IMG/VR virus record: IMGVR_UViG_3300001525_000075
Span: 1 to 64,000 of that record
Strand: one strand, 5' to 3'
From: a virus
Lineage: Duplodnaviria > Caudoviricetes
DNA length: 64,000 nt
Shown here piece by piece: positions 9,217 to 51,645 of the stretch (positions are counted from its first letter, which is position 1; the number at the start of each line of letters is the position of its first letter). The position numbers and the translations under genes were made by a program. The notes under the pieces were generated by a model. It worked only from the letters and a program-made list of their open reading frames with translations. It made no database searches and had not been told where the DNA came from.

Positions 9217-11523
9217 ATGGAAGTAAAACCTATTAAGAAGAAACGTGGACGTCCTAAGAAAAATCCTGTTTTACCTGAACCTATTCAAAAAATAGTTGAT
9301 GAAGTTAAAGCAAAAGAGGACAATGAAATAAAATAGATTATAAAAGAAGAGAAAGAAAAACGTAAAGGAGAATGGGATATAAAAATTGATGACCCAATTC
9401 TTTTCTTTGATTCTAATCTTTCTTATGAATTAACAGGTTATAAACCTATTAATAAAACTAAAGGTTTAGATTTTAAACCTGAATGGTTCACTGAAGCAAG
9501 AGATACTTTTAAAAGAACTGGACACTATTGTTAGTATCCTTCTAAAAGTAAAGCTTTTTCAGATTTTTGGACTAAAGAATACATAAGATGTCGAGATGGT
9601 ATGACTGTTAATGGATATACAATTACAGGAGATAATTATTTCTTCTTAAATTATTATCAATTAGCAAATCTCGAAACAGCTAAAGCTGGTACAGGTCGTG
9701 TAATGGATTTCCCTTCATTTTATGTCGCATAGTATGAATGGTTTCATTATTTAGAACTGTGCAAACGAGTTAGAAAGAATGCAGTTCTTATGAAAGCTCG
9801 TGGTGTCGGATTTTCAGAAATGGATGCATCTTTGGCTGCTAATACTTATAGTTGTAGAAGTCATACAAATACAATTATTGCTGCTAATTTGTCTAAATAT
9901 GTTGAAGATACTCTTTCTAAAACTTGGAATGCTTTATCATTTTTAAATGACTATACCGATAAAGGTTTCTTTAAATTAAGACAAGTAGTAGATAAATCAG
10001 ATATTAAAAAAGCATCTTATTATAAGATGATTAATGGTCAAAAGGTTGAAACAGGTTGGATGTCTCAGATTAAAGGTATTATTGCGGATTCACCTAATAA
10101 AATTCGTGGTGATAGATGTGATGTACTTTTATACGAAGAGTTAGGTTCTTGGGACAATTCAGTTAAAGCTTTTATACAAGGTGATGCATTAATTGGCATT
10201 CAAGGTATGACATTCGGGATAAAGATAGGCGGAGGAACAGGTGGGGACTCGGGTTCGAAGCTGGAGGGCCTCAGAACAATCTACTACAATCCTGAAGCTT
10301 ATAATGTTTTACCTTATAGACATAGATATACACAATCTCATGAAGAAGTATTAACTGCGTACTTTATTCCTGCGTTTACTGTAGTTAAAGGTAATTGTAT
10401 GGATGCTAGAGGATTCACCGATCCTGACAAAGGATTAGAATATTATAATAATAAACGTGCTGCATTTGCAAGTAATCCTAAAAACCTAATTACTTATGCG
10501 GCAGAATATTGTTATAATGCAGAAGAAGCTTTTTCATTGGAAGGAGATAATAAATTTAATAAAGCAGCTATTGCCGAATAGTTAGCTCTTATTAGATTAC
10601 ATAAACAAGGCAAAGAAGTAAAAACTGGAGATTTAGAATATATATTTAAAAACTCAGTACACACTCCTGATAATATTACAGGGATTACTTTTAAAAGTAA
10701 TCCTAATTCTAAATTAAAAATAATAGAACCTCCTATTTGGGAATGTAGTTCTATTAAAGATGGAGATGGTAATATTATTTGGAATCCTCCTTCTGAACCT
10801 ATTAATAATTTATATGTAGTCGGCATTGATAGTATTGATATTGGTATGCAAGATACATCAAGTGCTACAAAAAGTCCATCAGATTTTTGCGTTGTTGTTA
10901 AAAAACGTGCATATGGTTTACAAGAACCTGAATATGTATGTATTTATAAAGACAGACCTGAAGATATTAGAACTGCATATAAAATAGCAATCAAAATAGC
11001 ATATTGGTATAACGCTATGATTAACATAGAAGCTACTAGAATGAATATGATTAGTTGGGCTAGAGATAATCATCACTTGAAATATTTTATGAAAAGACCA
11101 AGTGCTACTTATCCTGATCCTAATAAACGTAATCGCAACTAGTATGGTTCTCCTGCAACTTTAGCCGTAATCGATCATCAAACAACTCTTATTGCAGACT
11201 TTGTCAACGATTATTGTCACAATATTTGGTTTGAGGAAATGTTAGATGAACTTAATAGATATACTGACGACAATAAAACTAAGTTTGATATTATTGCAGC
11301 AATGGGTATGAGTGAACTTGCTGATGAAGAATTACATGATGTATCACCTCGTTCAGTAGAACCCGAAACTTACGATTTTCAAGACATAGGCTATTATGTT
11401 GATGAGAAAGGTGTGAAACGTTACGGTATTATACCTAAAACTAATAAATACGAAACTAGAGTTAATGATAATTGGAGAGAATAGAATAATTTTATACGAA
11501 CCAGTAATTCTTATTATAGATGA
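9217..11523 (+). CDS. terL: Terminase large subunit (768 aa, code 15)
   Basis: Frame 1 reads through TAG at 9334, 9532, 9730, 10579, 11140 and 11482 to TGA 11521. Motifs: Walker A-like KARGVGFSE, Walker B LLYEE, GTGG, nuclease YVVGIDSID and FDIIAA. Confidence 0.95.
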
Positions 11524-37804: not shown

Positions 37805-39064
37805 ATCAAGCGCATTGGTAATTTAATGCCTCGTCTATGTTACACTTGGAATCTAGAAAATTCAGATTTACAAGCAAGAAGAGGTAAAAAATGTAAGAGA
37901 GCTATAATTGAACATTCACTTGTAGCTGATGAACACTATAAGGAGTTAATAAATAAGTTTCAAACAGGAACTTATAAAACATCTCCTTATAGTCTTTTTA
38001 AGATATATGAACCCAAGGAACGTATTATTTATAGACTACCATATTATCCTGATCGACTGACACACCATGCAATTATGTCAGTCGTGAAGGATTTATGGAT
38101 TAAACAATTTATACCTAATACTTACAGTTGTGTTCCGGATAGAGGAATTACAAAAGTGGTTCATGATTTAAAAAGAGATTTATATAGATATGAATGGAGA
38201 ACAACTTATTGTTTAAAATTAGATATAACTAAATTTTATCCCTCTGTTAATCATCAGATTCTAAAAGATATTCTTGCTAAAAAGATTAAAGATAAACAAT
38301 TTTTAGCATTACTTGGAGAAATTATCGATTCGGTTAATGATTATGTTCCTCAAAAAGGAACAGGAATTCCAATAGGTAATTATTTATCTCAATATTTTTC
38401 TAATCTTTATTTGACTTATTTTGACCGATGGTGTAAAGAAACTTTACATTGTAGATTTTATTATAGATATGCTGACGATATAGTGATACTATCGGATAGT
38501 AAAGAATTTTTACACAATTGTTTGAAACAAATCAAAGAATATTTAAAAGTTAATCTTAAACTCACAGTTAAATCAAATTATTAGGTGTTTCCTGTTGAAG
38601 CTAGAGGTATCGATTTTGTTGGTTATGTATTTAGACATAATTACATAAAAGTGAGAAAGAAAACAAAAAAGAAAGTAATGCGTTTAGTTACCGCATTTCA
38701 ACATAAGAAAATATGTAGAGATGTAATGTTTGATCATCTTGTAGCGTATTTAGGAATATTAAAATATGCTGACAGCAAGCATCTTCTAAAGAAAATTGAA
38801 GATATTACTAAAGTTCGTTACTCTAATTTCAAAGGTAAGTTAGATAAAATTTCTAATTTTTATAATAGTGATTTAACCTATGTTATAGAGGCGATAGGAC
38901 ATCACAAGTATTATACCGTTAATTTTACATATAAATGTAAACCTTATACAGTAAAAAGTAGAAATGTTGATCAATGGTATGAATTAAAATGTGATATGAA
39001 ATTACCTGAACTTTATTCTTTTAAAAAACATGAGAAACCCAATTATACAAAAGTTTCAAGATAA
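37805..39064 (+). CDS. DGR reverse transcriptase (code 15; probable ATC start)
   Basis: Motifs (M)KRIGNL, YEPKERII, PDRLTHHA, LKLDITKFYPS, GIPIGNYLSQ (DGR IGxxxSQ signature), YRYADD and KSNY(Q)VFPVEARGIDFVGY. TAG 38582 joins the two track ORFs. Confidence 0.95.
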
Positions 39065-42165: not shown

Positions 42166-42420
42166 ATGGAAACTATTTTAGGTAATAGTTACGAATCTGT
42201 CGGAAATGTAAATACAGATTTGTTATTAAAAACTAGAGGAAATATTAAAGTTCAAGTTGGTAATACTTTTAAAGACCTATTGGAAAATGAAGGAAATACA
42301 TCTATTGTTAAAACTACAGATAGTGAACCTTCTTCAAGTTTAAGTTCAGGATTTTATTTATATGAAAATAAGTTATATTTAGTACACGGAGAAACCGTAT
42401 TAAAATTTAATCCTGCGTAA
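42166..42420 (+). CDS. Hypothetical protein
   Basis: Track ORF; DLLLKTRGNIKVQVG. Confidence 0.7.
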   Translation: METILGNSYESVGNVNTDLLLKTRGNIKVQVGNTFKDLLENEGNTSIVKTTDSEPSSSLSSGFYLYENKLYLVHGETVLKFNPA

Positions 42421-43545: not shown

Positions 43546-46500
43546 ATGATTATAGCGAATTTTGTTAGCAATCGTCCCACAATGTCTGAGACGAGAACTT
43601 ATGAGGACTTTTACAAATTTTTGGGTATGTGAGTGCCACTTTATTTAGTAATAAATAATAGTAACTATGTGAAACGGAGAAACCCTCCATTACAAAGGGT
43701 AATTCCGTAGGAAACTTTGACATAAAGGACCTCTAACGAATAGAGATTTGCTTTTAAATAATCCGAATTCACGGAAATATGGAATTAAGGAAAAAATCAA
43801 TATTGATAGCTTTAGTTATTGGTGACGGAACTATTAATTATCAAACTAAAGTTATTAAAGGAAAAACATATAAATACGCTAATTTAGAAGTCAATCATTC
43901 TTATAAACAATTAGAATATTGTAAATGGAAAGCTAATTTATGTAAATCTATTACTGGAAGGAAATGTTTAATACGCTACAAACACGTTCCTGAAAGAAAA
44001 ATAAATAATCGGATAACTAAATCTACAGAAGCTTGTAGATTTACTTGTTGTCACAGATATTTTAGAATTTTACGAAAGTGGCTTTATCCTAATAATAAGA
44101 AAAGATTAACTTCTAAATATTTAAAGTATTTAGATGAACAAGGTTTAGCAATTTGGTATATGGATGATGGTTCTTTATATGTAAGACCTGATAAATCCGC
44201 ATTTAATTGTGAATTACATACTCATATTCCTAAAGAAGACGCAGAAGATTTAATTTTAATGTTTCAAAACAAATGGAATATTAAATTTAATTTACATCAT
44301 GTTGGTGAAAATCAATATAATTTGAGATGTTGTTCTTATGCTGGTGTTAAATTTATAAAATTGATTTCTCCGTTTGTACCGCAATGTATGGATTACAAAT
44401 TAAAAATTCCTGAAAGATTTCTCCACGAGTGCATAGTACCCTAATTATAGGGTAATGATATATTCTAAACTAACAAGATGGCAAATTGTTAGAACTATAG
44501 GATAAAGAGCCTATAGGATAATATTATTGACTAAGCCCCATAAGTTGGGTGTAGTTTCACGTCTATACCCTGAGTTAACAGCTTCCTATCTTACTGAATC
44601 ATTGAGAAATATCTTTTATCAAGACCGTAAGTCTAATAACAAGTATCAATCAATTGATTCTATGTATCATTTTTAAAATCGGTACATATTAAATTCTCTG
44701 AATTGCTGGAATGTCTTTTAGATAATCAGCAGCTAAAATAAAATGTTCAACGACTAATCGAAAGATGTAATGTATAAAGTAATAAAAACTGTAAATGTAA
44801 AAACGGATGATTATTATCTTGGAATTATTTATTCTGAGAAAAATTCGTTTGATGGACAACTTGGAAACGGAGTTAACATAAATGACCCTATGACTTATCA
44901 ATTTAGTAAAACTAAATTTCAACAACAAGTTAAAGAGTGGGGTGTTAAATCCTTTAAAGTAGAAGTATTAAAAGAATATGATTCTTTAGAAGAAGCACAA
45001 GAATATTTAAATATAAAACTTACTCCTAAAGAAGTAGCTACTAAAGAGTGTTTAAATAATACTTATGCTGACAAGTTATATGAAGTATATGTATATGATA
45101 ATACAGGTAAATTTGCTAATAGTAAAATATTAGTAGACGCTGACACTGCATTTAATGGATTAAAACTTGATAAACAATATTTAAGTTTTTTATATGATGA
45201 AAAAGGATTCAGTAAAGCCAAGAAGATGCAGATTCAAAATAGACCTGTATATAAGTATGATATAAATGGAAATTTTATTTGTTCATACGAAACTCAAGTA
45301 CAAGCTGAAAAAGATAATAAATATAGTAATATTACTAAATCAATTAAACTTAAACAAGCTTGTAGAAATGGATTTTATTGGACTCTTCAAAAACTACCTA
45401 AATTATATTGGAAGAATCGTAAATGGGTTCAAGTTTATGATTCTCATTATAAATATATTAGAGGTTATAAGTTTTTAAAAGAATGTCAAAGAGTAAAAGG
45501 ATTTGAAGTTCGTGATGTAATGAATAAAAATATGTTATATGATGGATGTTTTTACTTTTATAAATGAAGTAGAGAATACTGAAATGTAATGATATAGTCT
45601 AATCTTAATAGAAATATTAAGTATTAATGTTTGAGTGGGAAGTTGAAACGAATTACATCAAGCGTGTTGAACTCGCTGATACTCCCCAAGGAGATGGCTC
45701 AAACGGTTCTGAAATTGAGTTTGCGTTTAAGGAAAGATATTATGAAAAGTATGATATTTTCAAGCATGACAAGACTATGCAACAATTTATGGTTGTAAGT
45801 CGTCCTATTCGTAAAGCAGACAATTACTGGGTAGTCACCTGTCGTTTAATTGATAGTGACTATTCTTCTAGCATTGATCTTAACGATTATTCTATTGGTG
45901 ACACCACTAGATTCCAATCTAATGCAATGCCTGAATTACACGAGGAAGGTAAACTTAACATATTAAAAAGAATTTACATTGCTTTCCTCCGTTAAGTTAT
46001 TAACTTAATGAATAATTAAAATAAAATTCTTAATTACTGGAAAGCCTATATTGGTAATCAGTAGCGAAATCTCAACTTTTACAAAAGTTCTGAGAAACGT
46101 TCAACGACTAGTCTAAAAGACGTAGGAGAAATGAACTCCGAAATGGAATAAATCTAACTTAAATACAATGAAATATATATAGTATATCAAACAGTAAATA
46201 AAGTAAACAATAAAATTTATATAGGTGTCCACGGAACAACTAATCCTAACGAATTCGACGGTTATATTGGAAATGGAGTTTTGATGGAGTAAATGAAGCG
46301 GGAAGATATTTGAATCCTAAAGCAATTGGTGCAGGACATTTACCTAGAGCAATTAAAAAAGGTCACCAATTTTTAGGACATCAATTCTCATACGAAAAGC
46401 TTCCATCTATGAAGAAATTAAAACATAGAAACGTAACTACTGTCGATAAACCTTATATTGGAGGAAAAATTGGAAGATATAATGATAATGGAGAACTTTT

Positions 46501-49500
46501 AGAAATTCTTCCGAATATGACTGAATGTGTTAAAGCAGGATACAAGAATGCTAAACAAGTAGCATTAGGAAAACGACAACATTGTAAAGGATTTGTATTT
46601 AAGTATTTAGATTAAGATATAGTCTGAACAATATTGAAAAGTATTGAATAACATAATTGTATGTAAAATATCAAAGTAATATTGAGCGTCATCGCAATTA
46701 TATTACTACTCACCGCGTAAATAGAGTAGTAATATTAGAATAATTATCGACTGCGCAAGATTATTAATAAAACAGATTAATCTGAAATAGTAATAATCAA
46801 TATCTTCTAAATTGCTGGAAAGTTCTTACTAATCAGCAGCCAAAAAATAAAAGGTTCAACGATTATCCAAATGGAGTAAAATTATGAAAAGGAAGATATA
46901 TAATATAAATATTAAATGAAATATATAGTATATTTAACAACTAATACACTTAACAACAAAATTTACATAGGAGTACATAAAACTGAAAATCCTGATGTGT
47001 TTGACGGATATATCGGATGTGGAGTTAATATGTGTTATCCAAGTAGTTACACAGATCCTAAAACTCCATTTCAGCACGCTGTTAAAAAATATGGAATTAA
47101 GAGTTTTAAGCGATATGTTTTACAAATTTTTGACTCTGAAGAAGAAGCTTATAATTTGGAATCAATTTTAGTAAATAAATCTTTTATCGCAAGAAATGAT
47201 ACATATAACATATCATTAGGAGGAAATAAAGGAAATTATTTATTTCCTATAAACCAATTTAATAAAGATGGAAATTTTATCAAATCTTGGGATAACATGC
47301 TTGTTGCATCTGAAGCTTTGGGCGTATCACATACTAGTATTAATAATGCTAAATTGTTTAAAGTAAGTTGTTTAGGTTATTTTTGGTCTACAGATTCATT
47401 TATTAATATAAAAGAATATAGTTATCATGTTGGAAAAAATGTTTATAAATATACTAAAAATGGCGAGTTAATAGATTCTTACGAATCACTGACTAATGCT
47501 GCTAAAAGTAATAATAGTTTAGAAAAAACTATATTTAGGTCGATTCAATCAAATATTCAAGTTCAAGGATTTTATTATTCATTTACACTTGTAGATAAAT
47601 TTATTCCTAAAAAATTACCTAGTTTAAAAGGTAAAATTGTATATATTTACGATTTAAACGGAAATTATCTAACAAAAAAAGAAAGTGGATCTGAATTAAA
47701 AAAATATTATAATGTAAAATCTTACGGTTGTTTAAGGCAAGCCCTTATTACTGGGAAACCTTATAAAAACACACAAGTTTCTTTAGAATTTAAAGATAAG
47801 TTAAATCCTGTAGAATCTTCAACTAATAAAGCAAAACGCATAGGTGTTTATGATTTAAATGGAAATTTAATAGAAGAATTTGAATCTATAAAATCTGCTT
47901 CTAGAAAATACGGGAGTTGTGTGTTTAGAGTACTCAATCATCGACAAAAACAATCTAAAAATTTAATATTTAAATATTTATAATTATATAAAGATATAGT
48001 CTATTTTGAGACGATAGTTATTCAGCCCTCTACGCTGCTCATGAGAACCAATTTATCAGTATTGCCGAAGGTAAAGACCAAGGTTCTCTTACTGAAACCA
48101 TCTATAAAATGCAAAAGAAGGAAAAGACTCTTCTCGACAATTTCCTTTATGTGCGTAATAATGGCTTATTATTTAATAAGTGTAATGTTGATGTGAACGG
48201 TTAGTGTTTAGCCGCATAATAAATAATTTATTATGAAAACCTTTTGAATTGCTGGGAAGCCTGTGATGGTAATCAGCAGCTACTTTAAAGAAATAGAGTA
48301 GTTCAACGACTAGAAACTATTAGGTAATTTAATGAATAAATAGATTCATATATTATAATTTAATAATCAAATAGGATTATATGGAATTAACAGAAGAACA
48401 AAAAAGCTTATTGCTAGCGTTGTGTATAGGAGACGGTTGTTTACGAAAACCTCATCCTAAATCAGGAAATGTTCAACTAGAAATTGCTCATTCTACAAAA
48501 CAAGAAGAATACTGTAAATGGAAACGTGATTTAGTTTATAGTATTTTTGGAGGAAAAAGAATTCCTAAAATAGGATATAAAACAATAAAATTAAAAAATA
48601 GAGATAAGGAATATAAAGCATGTAGGTTTACTAAATCTCATCCTTATTTCTTATACTTAAGACATTTGTTATATCCTAACAATGTGAAAGTTATGACTAG
48701 AGAAATATTAGATAAGTTGACATTACAAGGTTTAGCAATTTGGTACATGGACGATGGTTCTTTTTACAAAAAAGATAACGAAGATGGAACTAAATCTATA
48801 TGCTTTGATTTAAGAATTTCAACTGATTCTTTTTCTTATGAAGAAAACGTATTAATATGTGATTTCTTTAAAGAAAAATATGGTATAAATTTTTATCCAT
48901 ATAAAACACATAAAGAAAAAGAACATAGTTGGGTTTTAAGAGCTAATAAACAAGCTGCTATAAAGTTTATAAATTTAATTAAACCTTATGTTATTCCTTC
49001 AATGAAATACAAAATAGAATATAAAAGTTAATAGTTTCCAAGAGTAAAAGGCAACTTTAAAATTAAAGTTGAAGATATAGTCTAAACTTATACGAAATTA
49101 GAAGTATAAGAATTACAGGATAAAGAGCCTGTAAGATAATATAATTGAAGCCCACAATCAGCGATCCTGATACAGGTAGACCTAAACATTGAGTATAGTA
49201 ACTTAATAAATGGGTCGAATAGATGTAAATCTATTTATAAATAATTTTCTTTAATTGCTGGAAACTCTTATTTAAGATAATCAGCAGCTAATTTTTACAT
49301 ATAGTAAGCATTAATAATGTAACTGTAAAAAAGTTCAACGACTAGGTTTTAACCGTACATCTATAAGATGGAAATAGGAAATAACTTAAAGTAAAAGTAT
49401 AAAACTTATGAAGTATGTAGTATACTTAACTACAAACAAAATAAATAATAAAACTTGTGCAGGTTTTAAATGGAGTTATGAAAAATCAAAAATGATTTTG

Positions 49501-51589
49501 CCTTACAAAAAATCTAATATAAAACCTGTAAAAATAGCGCAATACGATTTAAATCATAAGTTAATAAAAATTTGGAATTCTGTATCTGAGTGTAAAAAAG
49601 AATTTCCAAGTTGTCAAAAAGTTTGTAGAAAAGAAAGAAAAACTTCAAAAAATTTTATATTTGAATATATAAGTTAAAGATATAGTCTGCTCTTTATAGT
49701 AATATAAAGATAACAAAAGAATTTATATAGGTGATGGTATCATACCTCAAGTTGAGCGTTTTGCATCTAAGTATGCTTTCGCTAAGTTAACTATTGAGGT
49801 ATTCCATACTGTAATTGCTACACTTAATGAAAAAGCTTCTCAACCTACTGGTAATCACTATATGTTTATATGCAACGAACGTATGTGGAACCTCATTCAA
49901 CAAGTTCTTGGCGATTATCTCGCTAAGTTCAAGACTGATGGTACTTATCTTTACTCTAAGGCTGCTAACGGCTATGTAAAGGTGGGCGCAACGTTTGATT
50001 CATATGAATACGGTGGAAATAGTATTACTTTTAAGGTTGATCGCACATTCTCACGTGAATATGGCTTTGAAAAAGGCTACTGCCTTTGCCTTGATTTAAC
50101 TGCGGATTAGACTTCCGCAGAACCTCCTATTTAAATATCTAGGTAGGAGTTAAAAATAACTTCCTAATTGCTGGAAACTCTTATTTAAGACAATCAGCAG
50201 CTAAGTATTAGAATATGCAAACTTTATAAGTAGCTCTAATAAAAGTTCAGAGGCTAGTTACGAAACTTAAATTATTAAAATAATAATTGAAATGGAAGAC
50301 AAATTTAAATATATAGTATATTTAACTACAAATCTTGTAAATAATAAAATTTACATAGGAGTACATAAAACAAAAAATCCTGAAGTATTTGATGGGTATC
50401 TTGGATGCGGAGTTAAAATATCTGACAGATCGACTTATAGATATTGTCATACTCCATTTGAATCAGCTGTTAATAAATATGGACCTTCTAAATTTAAACG
50501 AAAAACTTTAAAAGTTTTTAATAAATTAGAAGATGCGTTAGATCTTGAACGACGGCTAGTAGATTCAAACTTTATTAAACGTAAAGATACTTACAATGTA
50601 ACCTTGGGTGGAAATTTACCTCCTACATCAAAAAAAATTATATATCAATATTCTTTAAAAGGATCTTTTATAAAAGAATGGGATTCTATAACAGAAGCGT
50701 CCATTTTCTATAAATGTAGTTCTTCTTCTATCGGAAAAGCTATATTTGATAGAACACCTAGTCGAGGTTATTTATGGACAGATTACAAATATGAATACAT
50801 TGATATAAATAATTTTAGAATTAATACAAATAAACATACTTGCTATATATATGATAGTTTGGGAAATTTTATAAATAGTACAACTTCTATAAACGAAGCT
50901 GCAAAACTATATAATCTTTCTTCAGGTAATATTTCTAACGCTATATCTGGCAAATATTGTGTAAACAAACAATATTATTTTTCTTCAGTTAAATATACTA
51001 AATTCCCAATCCCTGAAAAAATTTCTTATGATGACGGCTTTTATATGTATGATTTATCAGGTGTATTTATAAGACATTTTAAAACAATATCTGAAATACA
51101 AAAGTTTTTTAATACTAAACGAGTAAGCTCTGTATATAGAGCTATACGAACAGGAAATACCGCTTTTAATTATCAATGGAGTAATAAAAAATTACAAAAC
51201 ATGAAAGAATTAAAAGTTTATAATCAAAAACGAAAAGTTGGAAAATATAGCTTAAACGATGAACTTTTAGAAGTTTTTGATACAGTAAGAAGTGCGAGAA
51301 AAATAGCTTCCGGTGTTCCACAAGTGTTAAAAGGTCAAAGAAATACGGCAGGAGGTTATAAATGGAAATATATAGAATAAATTTGAAGATATAGTCCAAA
51401 ACTCAGTAGATGTTTACTTTGAAAGGGGGTGACTTCATCTCTAACAAGTACCTCGGTGTTGGTGGTGAAGATGGACTCAGCTCAGGTGTTGTTTCAAGTC
51501 CTGTTGCTGGTTCTAAGCTAATTAACTGGGGTTACAGTGGTGTAGGTGTATTTAATCCCTACAGATCTTTCATTTTGCGTGAAATTTGA
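43546..51589 (+). CDS. Major capsid protein, spliced from 8 exons (473 aa, code 15)
   Basis: Exons 43546-43626, 44530-44667, 45630-45950, 46660-46718, 48009-48201, 49148-49183, 49721-50131 and 51407-51589 total 1422 nt and give one continuous frame: MIIANFVSNRPTM...FLG|TKPHKLG...SMY|FEWEVET...HEEG|YVKYQS...HRV|DDSYS...DVNG|KPTISDPDTGRP|IYIGDGIIPQVER...PPI|QMFTLKGG...FILREI. Confidence 0.9.
43627..44529 (+). mobile_element. Group I intron 1 of MCP (903 nt)
   Basis: Preceded by U and ends in G; P7 GAATA (43738) / TATTC (44461); LAGLIDADG ORF in L8. Confidence 0.85.
43779..44444 (+). CDS. LAGLIDADG homing endonuclease (intron 1)
   Basis: LIALVIGDG and LAIWYMDDGS motifs. Confidence 0.9.
   Translation: MELRKKSILIALVIGDGTINYQTKVIKGKTYKYANLEVNHSYKQLEYCKWKANLCKSITGRKCLIRYKHVPERKINNRITKSTEACRFTCCHRYFRILRKWLYPNNKKRLTSKYLKYLDEQGLAIWYMDDGSLYVRPDKSAFNCELHTHIPKEDAEDLILMFQNKWNIKFNLHHVGENQYNLRCCSYAGVKFIKLISPFVPQCMDYKLKIPERFLHECIVP
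44668..45629 (+). mobile_element. Group I intron 2 of MCP (962 nt)
   Basis: AATTGCTGGAA / AATCAGCAG core; P7 GACTA (44752) / TAGTC (45595); terminal G. Confidence 0.88.
44770..45567 (+). CDS. Divergent GIY-YIG/NUMOD-type endonuclease (intron 2)
   Basis: YKVIKT...YYLG...FDGQLGNGV is alignable by eye to the intron 4 and 7 ORFs; has VYKYDINGNFI NUMOD1-like repeats. Confidence 0.65.
   Translation: MYKVIKTVNVKTDDYYLGIIYSEKNSFDGQLGNGVNINDPMTYQFSKTKFQQQVKEWGVKSFKVEVLKEYDSLEEAQEYLNIKLTPKEVATKECLNNTYADKLYEVYVYDNTGKFANSKILVDADTAFNGLKLDKQYLSFLYDEKGFSKAKKMQIQNRPVYKYDINGNFICSYETQVQAEKDNKYSNITKSIKLKQACRNGFYWTLQKLPKLYWKNRKWVQVYDSHYKYIRGYKFLKECQRVKGFEVRDVMNKNMLYDGCFYFYK
45630..45950 (+). CDS. Major capsid protein exon 3
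   Basis: FEWEVETNYIKRVE...SNAMPELHEEG; corresponds to most of track ORF 45627..45995. Confidence 0.85.
45951..46659 (+). mobile_element. Group I intron 3 of MCP (709 nt)
   Basis: AATTACTGGAA / AATCAGTAG covarying P4; P7 GACTA (46106) / TAGTC (46620); terminal G. Confidence 0.88.
46168..46615 (+). pseudogene. Degraded GIY-YIG endonuclease (intron 3)
   Basis: An extra AT dinucleotide after ATG 46168 shifts the frame off IVYQTVNKVNNKIYIGVH. Stop at 46290; C-terminal NUMOD fragment at 46310..46615. Confidence 0.8.
46719..48008 (+). mobile_element. Group I intron 4 of MCP (1290 nt, phase 2)
   Basis: Core motifs present; P7 GATTA (46861) / TAGTC (47997); splice GT|A reconstitutes a Val codon. 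Confidence 0.88.
46916..47983 (+). CDS. GIY-YIG homing endonuclease with NUMOD1 repeats (intron 4)
   Basis: YIVYLTTN...KIYIGVH, AVKKYG..SFKR, EEEAYNLE. Confidence 0.88.
   Translation: MKYIVYLTTNTLNNKIYIGVHKTENPDVFDGYIGCGVNMCYPSSYTDPKTPFQHAVKKYGIKSFKRYVLQIFDSEEEAYNLESILVNKSFIARNDTYNISLGGNKGNYLFPINQFNKDGNFIKSWDNMLVASEALGVSHTSINNAKLFKVSCLGYFWSTDSFINIKEYSYHVGKNVYKYTKNGELIDSYESLTNAAKSNNSLEKTIFRSIQSNIQVQGFYYSFTLVDKFIPKKLPSLKGKIVYIYDLNGNYLTKKESGSELKKYYNVKSYGCLRQALITGKPYKNTQVSLEFKDKLNPVESSTNKAKRIGVYDLNGNLIEEFESIKSASRKYGSCVFRVLNHRQKQSKNLIFKYL
48009..48201 (+). CDS. Major capsid protein exon 5
   Basis: DDSYSALYAAHENQFISIAEGK...NNGLLFNKCNVDVNG. Confidence 0.85.
48202..49147 (+). mobile_element. Group I intron 5 of MCP (946 nt)
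   Basis: AATTGCTGGGAA / AATCAGCAG; P7 GACTA (48308) / TAGTC (49078); terminal G. Confidence 0.88.
48381..49031 (+). CDS. LAGLIDADG homing endonuclease (intron 5)
   Basis: LLALCIGDG and LAIWYMDDGS motifs. Confidence 0.9.
   Translation: MELTEEQKSLLLALCIGDGCLRKPHPKSGNVQLEIAHSTKQEEYCKWKRDLVYSIFGGKRIPKIGYKTIKLKNRDKEYKACRFTKSHPYFLYLRHLLYPNNVKVMTREILDKLTLQGLAIWYMDDGSFYKKDNEDGTKSICFDLRISTDSFSYEENVLICDFFKEKYGINFYPYKTHKEKEHSWVLRANKQAAIKFINLIKPYVIPSMKYKIEYKS
49184..49720 (+). mobile_element. Group I intron 6 of MCP (537 nt; atypical junction)
   Basis: Core motifs present; P7 GACTA (49340) / TAGTC (49683); IGS ATAAATGGGTC (49206-49216) pairs both exons. The junction may be shifted by one base (49183-49719). 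Confidence 0.82.
49408..49677 (+). pseudogene. Internally deleted GIY-YIG remnant (intron 6)
   Basis: MKYVVYLTTNKINNK is fused directly to a C-terminal NUMOD1-like segment; the YIG and catalytic part are missing. Confidence 0.75.
49721..50131 (+). CDS. Major capsid protein exon 7
   Basis: IYIGDGIIPQVERFASKY...LDLTAD(Q)TSAEPPI; contains TAG 50108. Confidence 0.85.
50132..51406 (+). mobile_element. Group I intron 7 of MCP (1275 nt)
   Basis: P1 CTCCTATT / GGTAGGAG (50142-50149); P10 ATATCTA / TAGATGT; P7 GGCTA (50252) / TAGTC (51392); terminal G 51406. Confidence 0.9.
50292..51380 (+). CDS. GIY-YIG homing endonuclease with NUMOD1 repeats (intron 7)
   Basis: YIVYLTTNLVNNKIYIGVHKT, AVNKYG..KFKR, DALDLE. 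Confidence 0.88.
   Translation: MEDKFKYIVYLTTNLVNNKIYIGVHKTKNPEVFDGYLGCGVKISDRSTYRYCHTPFESAVNKYGPSKFKRKTLKVFNKLEDALDLERRLVDSNFIKRKDTYNVTLGGNLPPTSKKIIYQYSLKGSFIKEWDSITEASIFYKCSSSSIGKAIFDRTPSRGYLWTDYKYEYIDINNFRINTNKHTCYIYDSLGNFINSTTSINEAAKLYNLSSGNISNAISGKYCVNKQYYFSSVKYTKFPIPEKISYDDGFYMYDLSGVFIRHFKTISEIQKFFNTKRVSSVYRAIRTGNTAFNYQWSNKKLQNMKELKVYNQKRKVGKYSLNDELLEVFDTVRSARKIASGVPQVLKGQRNTAGGYKWKYIE
51407..51589 (+). CDS. Major capsid protein exon 8
   Basis: (Q)MFTLKGGDFISNKYLGVGG...GVFNPYRSFILREI, ending at TGA 51587. Confidence 0.85.
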
Positions 51590-51645
51590 TAAAATCACTG
51601 TAATAGCGTAAAGATAGCGCAAATAATATAATATATACATAGATT

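Follow-up and report, generated by a model that had tools for sequence, protein, structure and literature searches.

Seven putative group I introns and in-frame amber codons in the major capsid gene of a crAss-like phage

Intron-rich genes and the locus under study

Fungal mitochondrial cox1 genes carry many group I introns each. In phage T4, the introns of td, nrdB and nrdD belong to subgroup IA2 and are associated with the GIY-YIG endonucleases I-TevI and I-TevII: each of these nucleotide-metabolism genes has one intron, the open reading frames (ORFs) lie in the P6 or P9 loops, and the genetic code is standard. The gene orf142 of Staphylococcus phage Twort reportedly contains three group I introns. 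The present study concerns a stretch of 64,000 nucleotides (nt) of viral DNA, positions 1 to 64,000 of IMG/VR record IMGVR_UViG_3300001525_000075 (Duplodnaviria; Caudoviricetes), hereafter called the window, in which a major capsid protein (MCP) gene at 43546-51589, on the plus strand, appears to be interrupted by seven such introns. The window and 15 kb beyond it form a contig of 79,143 nt.

The introns of the window resemble those of T4 in their core motifs (AAUUGC..GGAAA, GUUCAACGACUA, GAUAUAGUC), in extra helices after P7, and in carrying the endonuclease as a free-standing ORF that loops out from the ribozyme; they differ in having their ORFs in P8, in being seven to one gene, and in residing in a recoded phage. 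As in Twort, several group I introns occupy one phage gene, seven here against three there, in another phage lineage and host phylum. Like cox1, the capsid gene is a conserved gene that acts as a sink for independent LAGLIDADG and GIY-YIG introns, present in some strains and absent from others, but cox1 belongs to an organelle and not to a virus, and is under no pressure to be expressed in a burst during a single infection cycle.

In the Delta group of crAss-like phages, group I introns are typical in the MCP and other core genes, and in the Zeta group genomes contain as many as 14 introns and 3 inteins; one MCP, that of cMAG OLRF01000054, is in five fragments (Yutin et al. 2021, PMC7886860). 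These genes share with ours the crAss-type MCP, the origin in gut metagenomes, group I introns marked by LAGLIDADG or GIY-YIG domains, and stop-codon recoding within the group. In the published example there are four intervening segments, against seven introns in the window, and its MCP was reported without recoded stops, whereas ours has two TAG codons; moreover, introns were identified there by protein domains, and here by ribozyme cores, guide pairings and exact junctions. Other phage structural genes also contain group I introns: those of Cluster J mycobacteriophages, in capsid and tail genes, are single in each gene (PMC3706429), and Jug phages, whose splicing was confirmed by metatranscriptomes, are dense in them, with 18.5 per genome and many homing endonucleases, although most of these introns are ORF-less, of about 206 nt, and spread over many genes, with terL in two to three fragments and a standard code (PMC12880540).

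The kind of feature is therefore already known, as had been noted in an earlier reading of the window's sequence, hereafter the original prediction, and the gene of the window is an extreme case of it. We show how its exons and introns are arranged, describe the ribozyme cores together with their guide pairing and endonuclease ORFs, and document both the recoding and the variable presence of the introns among relatives. Beyond the more extreme case itself, the contribution lies in the exact junctions, the ribozyme anatomy, the amber recoding in the same gene and a census of insertion sites. The extent to which introns have colonized one essential phage gene is unusual in scale, with 82% of the locus intronic and micro-exons of 36 and 59 nt, in a gene that needs the highest level of expression late in infection. 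Our reading, to which we assign a probability of about 0.8, is that a single crAss-like MCP gene, with TAG read as glutamine, has been invaded by seven independent mobile group I introns, accumulated as selfish elements.

The reconstructed capsid gene and its amber codons

Exons were mapped by tblastn with the intact ORF of 473 amino acids (aa) of GenBank MT835470.1 (L001:7179-8600), and the junctions were then read by eye. The ORF maps onto eight co-linear pieces of the plus strand of the window. The locus, 8044 nt long, is divided into eight exons totalling 1422 nt and seven introns totalling 6622 nt (82.3%). Joined, the exons form 473 codons and a stop, and they align without gaps, with clean junctions throughout, to 112 intron-free homologues from IMG/VR of exactly 473 codons; one intact homologue, L083, shows 86% identity to the spliced product. 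The exon and intron sums agree with the original prediction (1422 of 8044 nt coding, seven introns of 537-1290 nt), and the end-to-end alignment with intron-free homologues is a check that it had itself named. Its exact 473-aa frame also stands as to length and alignment, with a qualification that it omitted: the frame can be read through only with TAG as a sense codon.

All features lie on the plus strand. Exon 1 (43546-43626, codons 1-27, ending in GGT) is followed by intron 1 (43627-44529, 903 nt), exon 2 (44530-44667, codons 28-73) by intron 2 (44668-45629, 962 nt), and exon 3 (45630-45950, codons 74-180) by intron 3 (45951-46659, 709 nt). Exon 4 (46660-46718) is a micro-exon of 59 nt that runs from codon 181 to the second base of codon 200; intron 4 (46719-48008, 1290 nt), which alone among the seven splits a codon, separates it from exon 5 (48009-48201), which runs from the third base of codon 200 to codon 264. 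Intron 5 (48202-49147, 946 nt) precedes the second micro-exon, exon 6 (49148-49183, 36 nt, codons 265-276), and intron 6 has two possible placements, 49184-49720 or 49183-49719, both of 537 nt. Exon 7 (49721-50131, codons 277-413), intron 7 (50132-51406, 1275 nt) and exon 8 (51407-51589, codons 414-473 and the stop) complete the gene.

A start of exon 8 at the ATG at 51410, giving 472 aa, was rejected in favour of the TAG at 51407, because the relatives all keep 473 codons with glutamine at codon 414 and because the P10 pairing of intron 7 includes this TAG. A search for an intact second capsid gene on the 79-kb contig returned the exons only, and the candidate was rejected: the contig has one MCP copy.

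TAG occurs twice in the spliced frame, at codon 406 (50108-50110) in exon 7 and at codon 414 (51407-51409), the first codon of exon 8; the latter is CAA in each of the 13 relatives compared. The signal extends beyond the gene: under code 11, 72 of 110 ORFs end in TAG, with ORFs lying back to back. Once TAG is treated as sense, the ORF content of the plus strand grows to 25.6k aa, against 17.7k before, and frames reach 2421 aa; no comparable restoration follows when TGA is treated in this way. The whole contig is thus TAG-recoded, with TAG specifying glutamine as in a code similar to code 15. Standard gene callers miss this gene on account of both the introns and the amber recoding, and annotations of such phages will wrongly show no capsid gene.

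As for the identity of the protein, the Pfam family Crass_capsid (PF23898) has a cut-off of 27 bits, and two intron-free orthologues score above it, L001 at 52.2 bits and L083 at 38.4 bits; exon 3 of the window, taken alone, gives a partial match of 15.1 bits at the expected profile positions, 102-163. A further match of the L001 ORF is to PHROG 11589, 'major head protein'; in classified crAss phages, tblastn detects proteins with that annotation at 22-24% identity, and the genes flanking the locus are orthologous and syntenic between the window and L001. PHROGs and Pfam scans of single exons and neighbouring genes were mostly blank, Megablast of the locus against GenBank phages gave no match, and a sequence search of solved structures with the orthologue gave nothing meaningful. 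These comparisons support the reading of the gene as a crAss-type major capsid gene, and hence of the phage as a distant crAss-like phage; the capsid assignment of the original prediction rests well on the orthologue scores. The relatives' contigs are mostly 150-190 kb long and come from human-gut and animal-gut assemblies, and by this size and by its gene features the phage looks like a member of the group called 'Zeta' by Yutin et al. 2021 (PMC7886860).

Ribozyme cores, guide pairing and endonucleases

The Rfam group I intron family, RF00028, has a curated gathering score of 50 bits. When matches are reported by E-value, introns 2 to 7 are found on the plus strand at 32-43 bits, with E between 1.6e-8 and 3.7e-5: 34.7 bits (E 5.7e-6) for intron 2, 39.7 bits (E 1.8e-7) for intron 3, 32.9 bits for intron 4, 32 bits for intron 5, 43.2 bits (E 1.6e-8) for intron 6 and 35.2 bits for intron 7. 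The matches cover the P3-P7 half of the model only and lie shortly after the 5' splice sites deduced above. All matches with E < 0.1 in the 64-kb window fall in this locus, as do all occurrences of the combination of group I core motifs on the 79-kb contig.

Direct reading of introns 2 to 7 yields the motifs AATTGCTGGAAA (J3/4-P4), TAATCAGCAGC (P4'-P6), GTTCAACGACTA (J6/7-P7) and GATATAGTC (J8/7-P7'). Intron 1 has divergent motifs that are structurally parallel: P4 ACGGAG/TTCCGT, P5 CCCT/AGGG, P6 AGG/CCT and P7 GAATA/TATTC. All seven introns are paired at P7: the pairing is GACTA/TAGTC in introns 2, 3, 5 and 6, is changed on both sides in intron 1, and has G-U variants in introns 4 (GATTA/TAGTC) and 7 (GGCTA/TAGTC), so that the covarying P7 of the original prediction is recovered in each of its forms. 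Several introns have an insertion of 20-40 nt between P7 and P3', which in intron 3 is of the P7.1/P7.2 type. Such an insertion is a signature of subgroup IA, and the introns are IA-like in having extra helices at this place. A naive search for the P3 pairing directly after P7 failed, because the inserted helices separate P7 from P3'.

Relatives provide homologous introns in a more compact form. In locus L126, two ORF-less introns match RF00028 over the full length of the model and exceed its gathering score: one at 9763-9989, at the site of intron 6 (codons 276/277), with 104.1 bits, and one at 9441-9680, at the site of intron 5 (codons 264/265), with 79 bits. When 31 distinct cores, taken from the window and its relatives, are aligned, compensatory changes are seen at a P4 pair (GC in 25, AU in 3, UA in 3) and at a P6 pair (CG in 14, UA in 7, GC in 6, AU in 2), and 7 of the 14 predicted pairs have double changes. 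A custom covariance model built from this alignment, run over the window, found no further copy of the core.

The ends of the introns can be compared with the exon ends that the protein alignment gives. The 5' exon ends in T at all seven junctions, and the intron ends in G in six of seven cases, intron 1 among them. The internal guide sequences pair with these exon ends, and in introns 2 to 7 the P1 helix has 4-9 base pairs (bp) with a U-G pair: 7 bp in intron 2, where P10 is not notable; 9 bp in intron 3, with no P10; 4 bp in intron 4, with a P10 of 2 bp; 4 bp in intron 5, with no notable P10; 5 bp in intron 6, with a P10 of 6 bp contiguous with P1; and 8 bp in intron 7, with a P10 of 10 bp that includes the TAG of exon 8. 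This predicted pairing is support for the junctions at the level of RNA, independent of the protein alignment. Two exon ends differ from those of the intron-free relatives: codon 27 (43624-43626) is GGT in the window and GGA in 13 of 13 relatives, and codon 180 (45948-45950) is GGT in the window and GGA in 12 of 13. Both lie at junctions, the first and the third, and the substitutions fit either the U needed at the 5' splice site or a co-conversion of the exon flanks in the course of homing. Rfam matches, ORF-less homologues, covariation at P4 and P6, P1 and P10 pairing, and end nucleotides together support the identification of the insertions as group I introns, as originally proposed; intron 1 is the weakest and least secure ribozyme of the seven.

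All seven ORFs are located between P7/P3' and P7', in the P8 region; they begin 13-68 nt past the 5' strand of P7 and stop 1-43 nt short of P7'. The original prediction had placed all ORFs in the P8 loop: the position holds in all seven, but those of introns 3 and 6 are deletion remnants. The five full-length ORFs are two LAGLIDADG and three GIY-YIG/NUMOD-like genes. The LAGLIDADG ORFs of introns 1 (43779-44444) and 5 (48381-49031) score 98.8 and 103.7 bits against LAGLIDADG_2 (PF03161, cut-off 25 bits) and are 41% identical. Against NUMOD1 (cut-off 22.8 bits), the ORFs of introns 4 (46916-47983, 355 aa) and 7 (50292-51380, 362 aa) score 65 and 50.6 bits; their GIY-YIG-type N-termini (PF01541 / PF19835) score below the cut-offs, at 18.6 bits against 22.6 and 21.5 bits against 25. 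The NUMOD1-like ORF of intron 2 (44770-45567) encodes a protein of 265 aa that is 31% identical to the intron 4 endonuclease by blastp. The ORF of intron 3 has suffered a frameshift and an internal deletion, and its pieces, in two frames (46158-46292 and 46250-46615), match the N- and C-termini of the intron 4 and intron 7 enzymes, and in intron 6 a remnant of 89 aa is left (49408-49677). Among themselves the endonucleases reach only 31-41% identity, and what the introns have in common is limited to their cores; these are seven separate lineages and not recent duplicates.

The ORFs of the introns (43779-51380) can be read under the standard and the recoded code alike: TAG occurs at none of their 51 glutamine-type codons, versus 204 of 821 in the phage's own plus-strand ORFs (Fisher p 1.3e-6). 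Some phage genes adjacent to the MCP also lack TAG, and the contrast is not unique to the endonucleases.

Distribution of the introns and competing explanations

Capsid loci were collected from IMG/VR and metagenome contigs, and introns were counted over 154 near-complete, distinct homologous genes. No intron is present in 124 of them (81%), one in 25, two in 3, four in one gene (L193) and six in one (L126); the seven of the window are the highest count seen among complete genes. A further gene, L098, which is cut by the end of its contig, has at least seven. The capsid genes of L098 (3843-10640) and L126 (4587-11927) have their introns partly at different sites, ORF-less mini-introns of 197-255 nt among them. 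The L098 capsid gene also has in-frame stops that resemble recoding.

There are at least 13 insertion sites in all, partly shared among genes, at codons 14/15, 27/28, 73/74, 78/79, ~176-181, 192, 200, 252/253, 264/265, ~272, 276/277, 413/414, 431/432, 451/452 and 456/457. Site 73/74, that of intron 2, is occupied in the window only, and relatives have introns of 934-1379 nt at site 413/414, that of intron 7. The same site may be occupied by a version of the intron that contains an ORF, by one whose ORF has decayed, or by one without any ORF. This is the classical pattern of gain, decay and loss of homing introns. With about 80% of its members intron-free, at least 13 sites and three genes with six or more introns, the capsid family is a good natural system in which to follow such gain and loss.

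Under our reading, seven mutually divergent group I introns would have invaded the gene, each of them mobile, now or formerly, through the homing endonuclease in its own P8 region. Introns would accumulate in a highly conserved gene because conserved sequences offer stable targets to endonucleases, and we propose that they are tolerated because they splice. A primary transcript of about 8 kb would be cut and rejoined seven times by the two-step, guanosine-initiated reaction, with the internal guide of each intron pairing with its own flanking exon ends through P1 and P10; the resulting 1422-nt mRNA would be translated into a capsid protein of 473 aa, two of whose glutamines would be encoded by UAG. 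The introns would be selfish elements and not a regulatory device. How several ribozymes could fold next to one another in a single bacterial RNA is a question that such a transcript poses. We infer splicing, its efficiency and the homing activity from the DNA sequence, and the 'very efficient serial self-splicing' of the original prediction goes beyond the data.

Several results weigh against this reading. ARAGORN found no tRNA in the window or on the 79-kb contig, and hence no suppressor tRNA with anticodon CUA; the contig is probably about half of a genome, given the 150-190 kb of its relatives, and the suppressor is presumably encoded on the missing part. At the gathering score, RF00028 has no match in the window, because the ORFs split the model; the Rfam search that the original prediction had named as a check therefore gives sub-threshold matches to introns 2 to 7, none reaching 50 bits, and nothing for intron 1 even when matches are reported by E-value. 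The custom model does place a core in intron 1 exactly where predicted (43660-43742), but at 16.3 bits and E 0.77, and the guide pairing of this intron is weak, with 3 bp in P1 and 3 bp in P10. In favour of intron 1 are its LAGLIDADG ORF, related to that of intron 5, and its last 74 nt, at the 3' end, which are 77% identical to those of intron 5. A regular-expression hunt in relatives for P7 pairs of its type gave chance matches only, and the 240 loci yielded no relative of this intron. The frame of intron 6 forbids combining a U at the 5' site with a terminal G. The sequence comes from a low-coverage metagenome contig, covered 3-8x in the one DNA run that contains it, which is probably the source sample. 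Finally, no RNA run was listed as containing the locus, and three RNA runs chosen by label gave no reads from it, which makes them no test of splicing.

The weaknesses of introns 1 and 6 suggest that the gene might be decaying in a defective or dead-end phage, in which some introns, especially these two, no longer splice and no functional capsid protein is made. The short guide of intron 1 (3+3 bp) and its lack of a significant model match would fit, as would an intron 6 that ends in A or requires a C-G pair at its 5' site, and two of the endonucleases have already decayed. The exons, however, are free of frameshifts and of TAA or TGA stops, and are 86% identical, without gaps, to intact homologues; the odd end of intron 6 recurs in two further, diverged phages, which speaks for function; and the contig has only this copy of the MCP. 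We consider decay improbable.

The end of intron 6 deserves a closer look in this respect. In frame, the intron ends either in A, at 49720, with the canonical U-G pair at the 5' site, or in G, at 49719, with C at the 5' site; the contiguous P1 and P10 favour the first solution, in which CCT is joined to ATT. The same end, ...AGA|ATT, is found at this site in the diverged loci L126 and L193, whereas L131 ends canonically in G. The conservation of this 3' end in relatives is new here. It is conceivable, though we think it unlikely, that intron 6 and its homologues in L126 and L193 splice accurately without the otherwise universal terminal guanosine, or through a C-G pair at the 5' site. If this were true, the ORF-less version of 248 nt at L126:9753-10000 would be a natural ribozyme with a new way of choosing its 3' splice site. 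That short intron is in any case a handy test substrate.

The low coverage brings up an artefact of assembly, in which real introns from co-existing strains would have been threaded together across short exons (36-193 nt) and repeated cores. The presence of introns is indeed highly polymorphic among relatives, and near-identical stretches are common to the cores; in the sole DNA run with the sequence, at 3-8x, contigs are 177-281 nt long and none spans two introns. Yet the eight exons occur once each, in order and in frame, the guide of each intron matches its own flanks, and the same run shows no intron-less joint, although its coverage is weak, while some of its contigs bridge exon-intron boundaries, for example at 44646-44868 and 51337-51617. 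Since L126, with six introns, and L098, with at least seven, are independent multi-intron genes from other samples, a merging of strains by the assembler is, in our view, very improbable.

The regulatory role suggested in the original prediction is the least probable alternative: an array of introns kept by selection to delay or gate capsid production (through GTP level, maturase synthesis or a late suppressor tRNA) would agree with the restriction of the contig's detected introns to one late, highly expressed gene and with endonuclease ORFs that lack TAG and are translatable before a code switch, but about 80% of the homologous phages are intron-free here, multi-intron genes use different sets of sites, and decayed endonucleases and ORF-less versions fit the ordinary cycle of gain and loss of selfish introns, so that regulation is neither needed nor supported and the presence/absence pattern is what selfish homing elements produce. 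As a possible novelty, the array as a timer for late capsid synthesis is also a weaker option than an intron 6 without its terminal guanosine.

Two observations concern the genes upstream of the locus. In the intron-free relative L001, a gene of 672 aa (L001:3912-5930) lies two genes upstream of the MCP; only its first 41 or so residues are matched in the window, at 42166-42288, within an ORF of 84 aa. Either the upstream neighbourhood differs in the window, or the 672-aa gene is likewise disrupted. Farther upstream in the structural module, at 37826-39064, an ORF has a Pfam reverse-transcriptase domain (RVT_1) with a score of 64 bits.

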